Assembly (NCBI GenBank): GCA_000004985.1 | Contig: GG739481.1 | DNA: 1,245 nt | Reading direction: 5' to 3' (one strand) | From: Naegleria gruberi | Lineage: Eukaryota | Part shown: positions 148 to 910 of the stretch, piece after piece | Numbering within the stretch: the first letter of the stretch is position 1 | How the letters are laid out: each line of letters opens with the position of its first letter | Made by a program: the position numbers and the translations under genes | The notes under the pieces: model-generated | Database searches by the model: none | What the model saw: only the letters and a program-made list of their open reading frames with translations | What the model was told of the DNA's origin: nothing

Positions 148-234
148 TAGAGAGAAAACTTGAAATCCAAATACCATCTCTAAACATTTCCATTTCTGGA
201 ATTTGGATTTTTTTGAAAGATAGCAATCCAAAAC

Positions 235-240
235 AATAAA
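235..240 (+). promoter_or_regulatory. AATAAA hexamer, a candidate polyA signal for the putative upstream gene ending at 147.
   Basis: The motif aataaa sits in AT-rich intergenic sequence 88 nt after the frame-1 stop codon. Confidence 0.25.
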
Positions 241-267
241 TTTTCCTAATCTTATTGTATGTAAAAA

Positions 268-279
268 TCATATTTAATC
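268..279 (+). promoter_or_regulatory. TATA-like element (catatttaatca) about 50 nt upstream of the ATG at 326. It is a candidate core promoter of the secreted-protein gene.
   Basis: This is an AT-rich TATTTAA motif at a spacing appropriate for a short 5' UTR in a compact eukaryotic genome. It is weak evidence on its own. Confidence 0.2.
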
Positions 280-325
280 AAACGAGATTTACATTCTCCA
301 AAACAAATCAAAACTAAAAAACAAA

Positions 326-385
326 ATGAAACAAATCATTGCCATTCTGTTAGTTCTCTTATTTGCAGCTTGCACAGTGTATTGT
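326..385 (+). other. Predicted N-terminal signal peptide (about 20 aa). Cleavage is probably near CTVYC|S.
   Basis: Lys at position 2, a 12-residue hydrophobic core (IIAILLVLLFAA) and a small-residue/Cys c-region. No further hydrophobic segment follows, so the product is predicted soluble and secreted. Confidence 0.6.
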
Positions 386-682
386 TCAACTGATTCTTAT
401 ATTGCTTCATCTTATGCATATCCATACGCTTATCCATATTCATATGGAGGATATGGAGGATATGGAGGATATGGGGCATATGGAGGAGCAAATTGCTATC
501 CGCCAGTTGCTTCTACTTATGCCTATGCTGTAGCTCCAGTTACCTATGCTGCTCCTGTGGCTGCAACCTATGCAGTCGCTGCACCAGTTGCCACTTATGC
601 AGTTGCTCCAGTTTCATATGCAACTCCAGTAAGTTATGCAGCTCCGTATGCTTACCCATACGCCTATGCCAGACCTTGCTAA
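326..682 (+). CDS. Small secreted Tyr/Ala/Gly/Pro-rich repetitive protein, 118 aa. Complete ORF from ATG at 326 to TAA at 680-682. Likely a structural, matrix or wall-type protein.
   Basis: The ORF is uninterrupted and has an A-rich, Kozak-like context (aaaacaaaATGa). The N-terminus MKQIIAILLVLLFAACTVYC is a textbook signal peptide with a basic n-region, a hydrophobic core and a small/Cys c-region. The mature part is low-complexity with an ordered layout: SYAYPYAYPYSY, then (GYG)x4, then about six APV(A)(A)TYAV-type units, then PYAYPYAYARPC. The parallel frame (493..798) gives a Cys/Ser-rich nonsense string, as expected for a shadow frame. Confidence 0.7.
   Translation: MKQIIAILLVLLFAACTVYCSTDSYIASSYAYPYAYPYSYGGYGGYGGYGAYGGANCYPPVASTYAYAVAPVTYAAPVAATYAVAAPVATYAVAPVSYATPVSYAAPYAYPYAYARPC
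443..487 (+). repeat. In-frame 9-bp tandem repeat, tatggagga x5 with one variant copy (tatggggca), encoding the (Y-G-G) block.
   Basis: The nucleotide sequence reads tatggagga at 443-451, 452-460 and 461-469, tatggggca at 470-478, and tatggagga at 479-487. Confidence 0.9.
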
Positions 683-752
683 ATTCAATTGGAAGTGAAG
701 CTCAAATATTGAAGCTGAATATGGATAAGCCATTGAAGGCCTTAGTTGTGAT

Positions 753-758
753 AATAAA
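753..758 (+). promoter_or_regulatory. AATAAA polyadenylation hexamer for the 326..682 gene, 71 nt downstream of its stop codon and 34 nt upstream of the tRNA.
   Basis: The motif aataaa sits in the 3' flank of the secreted-protein gene. Its position implies a 3' UTR of roughly 90-105 nt ending just before the tRNA gene. Confidence 0.4.
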
Positions 759-791
759 GAAGAGTGTGATTTTGCAAAACCTTAATGTAAA

Positions 792-862
792 GCATTAGTA
801 GTGTAACGGTATCATACCAGCCTTCCAAGCTGGTGACCCGGGTTCGACTCCCGGCTAATGCA
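792..862 (+). tRNA. tRNA-Gly(UCC): tRNA-Gly, anticodon UCC, eukaryotic nuclear type. 71 nt with no encoded CCA.
   Basis: The acceptor stem GCATTAG/CTAATGC is a perfect 7 bp, with discriminator A. The anticodon stem CCAGC/GCTGG carries loop CTTCCAA, so the anticodon is TCC. The variable loop is TGAC. The T arm CCGGG-TTCGACT-CCCGG matches the eukaryotic tRNA-Gly consensus GACCCGGGTTCGAyTCCCGG. An A-box-like element lies at 799-810 and a B box GGTTCGACTCC at 841-851. The overall sequence is very close to known metazoan tRNA-Gly-UCC genes. Confidence 0.9.
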
Positions 863-867
863 ATTAG

Positions 868-878
868 TTTTAAATTTT
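868..878 (+). terminator. RNA polymerase III terminator: two T4 runs at 868-871 and 875-878, immediately 3' of the tRNA.
   Basis: The sequence reads gTTTTaaaTTTTg, beginning 6 nt after the tRNA discriminator base. Runs of four or more T on the coding strand are the canonical Pol III termination signal. Confidence 0.7.
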
Positions 879-904
879 GTCACGAAACACAGCTTCTTAT
901 TCAA

Positions 905-910
905 TTTATT
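905..910 (-). promoter_or_regulatory. AATAAA polyadenylation hexamer overlapping the stop codon of the minus-strand gene (…AGA CAA TAA ATT…).
   Basis: The reverse complement of 905-910 is aataaa, and the stop codon taa sits at hexamer positions 3-5. Confidence 0.45.

Follow-up and report, generated by a model that had tools for sequence, protein, structure and literature searches.

That tRNA genes (tDNAs) can act as barriers to Pol II is already known from yeast and from Leishmania. Of 272 yeast tRNA genes, 132 present a TFIIIB roadblock to Pol II. The footprint of TFIIIB lies 10-40 bp upstream of the start site, which in turn precedes the mature tRNA 5' end by about 13 bp; the front edge of Pol II runs 12-16 bp in advance of its active site, and the ends left by roadblocked Pol II are found 65 bp upstream of tRNA genes (PMC5052057). 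On the box B (3') side of yeast tRNA genes there is no significant Pol II peak, and transcripts terminated by the roadblock are unstable products that are seen after exosome depletion and are not mRNAs (PMC5052057). A barrier facing a convergent gene is exemplified by yeast PCL5, where a B-box mutation in the convergent tF(GAA)H1 lengthens the 3' end. In convergent regions of the Leishmania genome, Pol III genes limit read-through (PMC4150806), and at the convergent strand-switch regions of Leishmania and Trypanosoma, which belong to Discoba as Naegleria does, tRNA genes are found where opposing Pol II meets and read-through is reduced. The kinetoplastid setting differs in that these organisms have long polycistronic units and base J, whereas Naegleria has monocistronic, randomly oriented genes, each with its own AAUAAA.

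The background against which a Naegleria locus has to be read is well described. The N. gruberi genome contains 924 tDNAs (PMC2888827), and genes in Heterolobosea are monocistronic and randomly oriented, with about two genes per directon (bioRxiv 10.64898/2026.07.29.740908), from which it follows that about 25% of neighbouring gene pairs should be convergent. Direct RNA sequencing of N. gruberi identified AAUAAA as the top poly(A) hexamer, placed it about 15-20 nt from the cleavage site, showed the hexamer to be the main determinant of site choice and gave a median 3' UTR of 39 nt; in about 11-13% of genes the stop codon and AAUAAA are combined in a dual-use signal, and the median 3' UTR of these genes is 22 nt (PMC11529991).

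We analysed a stretch of 1,245 nt with a GC content of 37% (hereafter, the window), in which two protein-coding genes are arranged tail to tail and the 223-nt spacer between them holds a tRNA gene. ARAGORN detected a single tRNA in the window, a tRNA-Gly with anticodon UCC (tcc in the DNA) at 792-862 on the + strand. The gene is 71 nt long, has no intron and no encoded CCA, and carries A as its discriminator; position 862 is followed directly by ATTAG rather than CCA. When compared with Rfam model RF00005, for which the gathering score is 29 bits, 792-862 scored 69.3 bits (E = 9.4e-15) and was aligned over the full length of the model (1-71 of 71). Standard pairs account for 20 of the 21 positions in the cloverleaf stems (acceptor 7/7, anticodon stem 5/5, T stem 5/5), the exception being a U.U at 804/812 in the 4-bp D stem, and the conserved loop residues are present. 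An AT-rich acceptor stem (GCAUUAG) is what a genome of 33-37% GC would lead one to expect. The minimum-free-energy fold produced by RNAfold lacks the D stem, while the cloverleaf evaluates at -22.9 kcal/mol and is supported by the covariance model; the loss of so weak a stem, of 4 bp, from a minimum-free-energy fold is normal.

The promoter, terminator and identity elements of this gene are likewise in place. An A box, which is part of type 2 Pol III promoters, was found by pattern match at 799-809 (TAGTGTAACGG, + strand) and would serve as an internal promoter element, and the B box at 841-851 (GGTTCGACTCC, + strand), the TFIIIC-binding element, fits the consensus GGTTCGANTCC exactly. Two T4 runs on the same strand, at 868-871 and 875-878, lie 6-17 nt past the tRNA 3' end in the position of Pol III terminators. 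About 0.17 such runs are expected by chance within 20 nt past the tRNA, and the runs are thus consistent with a terminator function and not significant on their own; the tRNA-Gly itself is far beyond chance. Its anticodon UCC is accompanied by discriminator A73 and by the pairs G1:C72 and C2:G71, a combination that represents the eukaryotic/archaeal type of tRNA-Gly identity and not the bacterial one. Every sequence-level feature that was checked for a eukaryotic nuclear tRNA-Gly gene (covariance score, A and B boxes, oligo-T, absence of CCA, identity elements) was therefore found, and when set beside known eukaryotic nuclear tRNA-Gly(UCC) genes the tRNA of the window resembles them in cloverleaf, anticodon, boxes, lack of CCA, A73 and oligo-T, with no substantive difference. 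These findings indicate that 792-862 is most likely a working tRNA-Gly(UCC) gene of the Pol III type, which Pol III would transcribe from the internal A and B boxes and leave at the T4 runs. An initial sequence-only reading of this DNA had proposed a tRNA-Gly at 792-862 with T4 terminators at 868-878, and ARAGORN, the Rfam score and inspection of the sequence all agree with it.

Two other accounts of the tRNA-like sequence can be weighed on the same evidence. That it represents a pseudogene or a SINE copy derived from a tRNA, a possibility for which the earlier reading had asked for a check, has nothing specific in its favour and is effectively refuted, leaving a chance that we regard as negligible: an alignment to the full model that scores 69.3 bits (threshold 29), 20 of 21 pairs, and intact A and B boxes and loop residues all argue against decay, the T4 terminators follow directly, and there is no SINE body, no A-tail and no repeat copy in the window. 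Alternatively, the tRNA could be released from Pol II read-through of the upstream gene on the same strand, with RNase P and RNase Z cleavage making the mRNA 3' end, as in tRNA punctuation or MALAT1/mascRNA. The tRNA does lie on the strand of that gene and only 109 nt past its stop codon, and a sub-threshold match to mascRNA was obtained (19.5 bits against 42.5). This match, however, is weak and reflects mere general tRNA similarity, a canonical AATAAA lies ahead of the tRNA, and both a complete set of internal Pol III boxes and T-run terminators belong to the tRNA gene itself, so that we consider this account highly improbable.

An origin of this DNA in a phage, a prokaryote or a giant virus was also considered and rejected. 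Searches with exact and degenerate DNA patterns of the tRNA-Gly gave no match in viral, metagenome or prokaryotic genome contigs, and blastn against phages yielded only weak tRNA-Gly similarity (77-80% identity). The lack of pattern matches, the Naegleria orthologue of a neighbouring gene described below, A73 and the missing CCA all speak against such a source.

The genes around the tRNA were examined in the same way. The window opens within a frame on the + strand (gene 0), in frame +1 and open from nt 1, of which the C-terminal 48 codons and a TAG stop (145-147) are included at 1-147; its GC content at codon positions 1, 2 and 3 is 0.46, 0.44 and 0.29. It is followed by an ORF at 326-682 on the + strand (gene 1) that encodes a 118-aa protein and ends with TAA at 680-682. 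The product of gene 1 begins with a classical N-terminal signal peptide and has a body rich in Tyr, Ala, Pro, Val and Gly, and the gene contains a YGG tandem repeat with a 9-nt unit at 442-487. GC content at its codon positions 1, 2 and 3 (0.54, 0.58 and 0.19) shows strong periodicity and the chance of an open frame of this length is about 2e-4, which together argue that gene 1 is a real coding frame. A reading of its product as a bacterial lipoprotein, suggested by a lipobox-like 'FAAC', was set aside because the gene lacks a Shine-Dalgarno sequence and stands in a eukaryotic context.

On the opposite strand, a frame open from the window edge (gene 2, 906-1245, - strand) contributes the C-terminal 112 codons of a protein and a TAA stop at 908-906; the product ends with a transmembrane helix followed by RKRK. 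This C-terminus is 96% identical to residues 406-518, the last 113, of the N. gruberi protein NAEGRDRAFT_75152 (lineage Discoba, Heterolobosea) and ends at the same residue. A HMMER search with the gene 2 fragment against 1.84 billion representatives returned one match, which was this protein. From these comparisons, gene 2 is identified as encoding a type I membrane protein orthologous to NAEGRDRAFT_75152, whose accessions are EFC37154.1 and XP_002669898.1. The match also assigns the window to the nuclear genome of a Naegleria in the N. gruberi group, one closely related to N. gruberi NEG-M but distinct from it. A word-indexed homologue search, on the other hand, found nothing for the gene 2 fragment; having overlooked a 96%-identical N. 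gruberi protein, it gives unreliable negatives, and the absence of homologues that it reported for the gene 0 fragment and for the gene 1 product is therefore uninformative as to their presence in Naegleria. For gene 1, Pfam gave no match and an exact look-up of the product found no record, and Pfam matches elsewhere were sub-threshold and driven by transmembrane segments. A ciliate genetic code was also rejected: if TAA and TAG stood for Gln, the frame of gene 2 would extend across the tRNA, and a double TAG TAG closes gene 0. The tRNA being intact and both frames being upheld, the description of the locus as a Pol III-type tRNA gene between convergent protein-coding genes is sound.

Having established the parts, we measured the distances between them. 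The stop codon of gene 1 lies 109 nt from the tRNA and its AATAAA 33 nt, while 43 nt separate the tRNA 3' end from the stop codon of gene 2. Thus, the clearance of under 50 nt on each side that had been claimed in the sequence-only reading is right for the gene 2 side; on the gene 1 side it is right when counted from the AATAAA and not when counted from the stop. The tDNA accordingly has the geometry of a potential barrier on both flanks, with gene 1 (+) approaching from 109 nt upstream and gene 2 (-) from 43 nt downstream. Gene 0 and gene 1 are separated by only 178 nt, in keeping with the compact genome inferred earlier. A tRNA-Gly gene between convergent genes is an ordinary layout to be expected for N. 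gruberi: with hundreds of tDNAs and short UTRs in the genome, some tDNAs should come to lie tens of nucleotides from an mRNA end. A 3'-3' spacer holds no Pol II promoter and, by this reasoning, would be the least harmful place for a tDNA; the position of the tRNA-Gly in the 223-nt spacer thus probably reflects a gene-dense genome, many tRNA genes and the absence of a Pol II promoter to disrupt.

The + strand of the window has canonical AATAAA hexamers at 235, 753 and 1008, and the - strand has one at 910-905; each of the three gene ends is provided with one at or past its stop codon. UGUA was not found upstream of any of these three hexamers. The likely poly(A) signal of gene 0 is the AATAAA at 235-240 (+ strand), in the context ACAATAAATT. 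The same 10-mer context recurs at the signal of gene 2.

For gene 1, the AATAAA at 753-758 (+ strand) is the only canonical hexamer in the 3' region, and between the stop codon and 753 there is no further canonical or single-mismatch hexamer. It lies at -39 to -34 relative to the mature tRNA 5' end and is followed by a GU/U-rich stretch at 763-773. Applying the N. gruberi rule of 15-20 nt between signal and cleavage (PMC11529991), we predict cleavage of the gene 1 mRNA at about 768-778, which is 14-24 nt before the tRNA 5' end. As an AATAAA is expected by chance in about 23% of cases in a spacer of 109 nt, its presence is consistent with a poly(A) signal and not significant on its own, and the 3' UTR that it implies, about 90 nt, exceeds the 39-nt median of N. 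gruberi.

These last properties could also be read to mean that 753-758 is an AT-rich, TATA-like site for TFIIIB/TBP, in place of or in addition to a poly(A) signal, with the gene 1 mRNA ending elsewhere. Its position at -39 to -34 falls inside the footprint that yeast geometry predicts at 739-769, its chance presence is far from negligible (about 23%), and the 3' UTR would be more than twice the N. gruberi median. However, the stretch from the stop to 753 offers no other canonical or single-mismatch hexamer, and the GU/U-rich sequence at 763-773 follows as it does at a real poly(A) site; we therefore consider this possibility quite unlikely.

At gene 2, the AATAAA at 905-910 on the - strand overlaps the stop codon (CAA TAA ATT; TTTATT on the + strand), the hexamer occupying 910-905 and the stop 908-906, which makes gene 2 a textbook case of the dual-use stop/AAUAAA known from N. 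gruberi and Giardia; it resembles those signals in the overlap itself, and the length of its 3' UTR is here a prediction. With the 22-nt median 3' UTR of dual-use genes (PMC11529991), cleavage of the gene 2 mRNA is predicted at about 878-895, 16-33 nt past the tRNA 3' end. A GU/U-rich stretch, GCUGUGUUUCGUG, is found at 893-881 on the - strand, and a CA at 879-878 lies within the complement of the second T run. The AATAAA hexamers of the window are, on this evidence, credible poly(A) signals, whose use at each gene we infer. The gene 1 stop at 682, the AATAAA at 753-758 and the gene 2 stop at 906-908 with its overlapping AATAAA were all correctly located in the sequence-only reading.

Neither predicted cleavage site is further from the tRNA gene than one polymerase footprint, which means that Pol II must physically meet the Pol III unit. 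On the gene 2 side, by the time the cleavage site emerges the front edge of Pol II would already have come to approximately the tRNA 3' end, at 5-15 bp from the B box, a position deduced from general Pol II dimensions. The earlier statement that the Pol II units abut or overlap the Pol III unit is thus physically right by polymerase geometry.

How far does the locus follow the yeast barrier? As at PCL5 and tF(GAA)H1, Pol II genes are aimed at the tDNA of the window over a short range. Gene 2 is the counterpart of PCL5, being convergent with the tRNA, whereas gene 1 approaches from the TFIIIB side; the distance from stop codon to tRNA is 43 nt at gene 2 compared with about 150 bp at yeast PCL5. 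Transferring the yeast geometry to the window would place TFIIIB at about 739-769, where it would cover the gene 1 AATAAA, and a stable roadblock of the yeast type would be predicted to halt Pol II near 727, when the AATAAA at 753-758 has yet to be transcribed. Because such a stall precedes the hexamer, a yeast-type roadblock and the AATAAA at 753-758 cannot both define the end of gene 1. The locus departs from the yeast barrier in that the gene 1 poly(A) signal falls within the footprint predicted for TFIIIB, and by its geometry it is a candidate barrier.

The earlier reading had raised the possibility that the 3' ends of both mRNAs are defined by the tRNA gene. In its strongest form, this would make the tDNA a selected boundary element, bound by TFIIIB and TFIIIC and kept in place to terminate Pol II on both sides, with both 3' ends defined by it or requiring it. 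Such a role would suit the way in which both Pol II units aim at the tDNA with clearances of 33 nt and 43 nt, the entry of Pol II into the Pol III unit before the cleavage sites emerge (by yeast geometry, PMC5052057) and the roadblock or barrier activity of tDNAs demonstrated in yeast and in Leishmania, another member of Discoba. However, both mRNAs have a canonical AAUAAA of their own, and the hexamer explains most of the site choice in N. gruberi (PMC11529991); a TFIIIB roadblock working as in yeast would halt Pol II near 727, ahead of the gene 1 hexamer; the box B side, which gene 2 approaches, shows no significant Pol II peak in yeast (PMC5052057); and yeast transcripts terminated by the roadblock are unstable and not mRNAs (PMC5052057). 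Moreover, with 924 tDNAs and about 25% of spacers convergent, such a placement is expected without selection. We consider a selected boundary unlikely, and the suggestion that the tRNA gene sets the two mRNA ends is left unsupported, as AAUAAA is the main determinant of mRNA ends in N. gruberi and the roadblock near 727 would come before the hexamer.

Termination of both mRNAs by their own AAUAAA is more likely, since a functional mRNA has to be cleaved and polyadenylated, and where this happens in N. gruberi is governed mainly by the hexamer. Our preferred reading, which we hold with good though not complete confidence, is accordingly that of a functional Pol III tRNA-Gly gene flanked by two mRNAs whose 3' ends derive from their own AAUAAA signals, with the Pol III complex acting as a fail-safe barrier and not as the determinant of either end. 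Under this arrangement, AAUAAA at 753-758 would direct cleavage and polyadenylation of the gene 1 mRNA near 768-778, and the stop-overlapping signal at 910-905 would direct cleavage of the gene 2 mRNA near 878-895. Pol II would reach these signals by transiently invading the Pol III unit, and TFIIIB, TFIIIC and Pol III, where bound, would most likely provide a back-up barrier against read-through into the opposite gene. Occupancy by these factors is itself inferred, and a back-up role for this tDNA is plausible by analogy with the described barriers. At the gene 1 end, the neighbours may be less passive than a picture of mere adjacency implies: given that TFIIIB, if placed as in yeast, would occupy 739-769 and stop Pol II short of the gene 1 hexamer, expression of gene 1 and of the tRNA may interfere with each other.

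What is specific to the window is only the locus and its very tight spacing. For the annotation of Naegleria it contributes a well-formed tRNA-Gly(UCC) gene together with three gene ends, and it is an example of the close packing of Pol II and Pol III units in this genome; its importance beyond annotation is small. If the neighbouring mRNAs were found to depend on the tDNA, the barrier function known from yeast and Leishmania would extend to Heterolobosea, and the locus would serve as a compact natural test case for collisions between Pol II and Pol III, including one at a poly(A) signal within a TFIIIB site; this would be an extension of a known principle and not a new one.

A more far-reaching version, in which interference between Pol II and Pol III is obligatory and couples the tRNA gene to both of its neighbours, with the AATAAA at 753-758 serving at once as poly(A) signal and TBP/TFIIIB site, appears to us very unlikely. 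It would follow if the two polymerases could not work simultaneously, since the only AAUAAA of gene 1 lies inside the predicted TFIIIB site and the gene 2 cleavage site would emerge only once the front edge of Pol II is at the tRNA 3' end, near the B box. The two neighbours that would be coupled in this way are a Tyr-rich secreted protein and a surface glycoprotein, possibly stage-specific.

Gene 2, on the minus strand, encodes the C-terminal part of a type I membrane protein, and its product (909-1244) was compared with residues 406-518 of the Naegleria gruberi orthologue, NEG-M NAEGRDRAFT_75152, revealing four substitutions and a one-residue indel in 113 residues. These differences show that the gene 2 sequence is not the reference sequence itself; the copy in the window comes from a different strain or sibling species, or is a divergent allele or a paralogue, relative to the NEG-M reference.

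The product of gene 1 (326-682, plus strand) is a small secreted protein that is rich in alanine (24%) and tyrosine (20%). It contains YGG repeats, with a 9-nt tandem array at 442-487, as well as YAxAPV-type repeats and a C-terminal cysteine. The protein was assigned to no Pfam family, and no homologue was detected in the word-indexed protein search, a type of search for which an empty result is not evidence of absence: it returned zero matches for the gene 2 fragment despite the presence of a 96%-identical N. gruberi protein in the representative library. We speculate that the gene 1 product might be a structural protein of the wall or cyst type that can be cross-linked via tyrosine.

Gene 1 also harbors one arm of a 15-nt perfect inverted repeat within its coding region (GCTTATCCATATTCA, 428-442, plus strand), the other arm residing in its 3' UTR (TGAATATGGATAAGC, 716-730, plus strand). 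When the gene 1 UTR was shuffled, an inverted repeat of 15 nt was reached in only one of 2000 shuffles. The repeat could represent a long-range stem within the mRNA, or it could be the relic of an inverted duplication of the Tyr-Pro/Tyr-Gly repeat.

Upstream of gene 1, the 3' UTR of gene 0 (the upstream gene end, plus strand) contains a hairpin between the stop codon (145-147) and the AATAAA (235-240), with 14-nt arms that are 93% complementary (163-176 and 197-210, plus strand) and a 20-nt loop. Within the stretch that follows (241-325, plus strand), only approximately 70 nt beyond the predicted gene 0 poly(A) site (~255) are left for the entire promoter and 5' UTR of gene 1, and the sequence here is an A-rich, CAAAA-like repeat (299-335). 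The Pol II promoter of gene 1 is either extremely short or overlaps the 3' end of gene 0.

The 10-nt context surrounding the AATAAA, ACAATAAATT, is identical in gene 0 (233-242, plus strand) and gene 2 (912-903, minus strand). Additionally, ATT follows each of the window's two TAA stop codons, those of genes 1 and 2, yielding TAAATT at 680 on the plus strand and at 908-903 on the minus strand.
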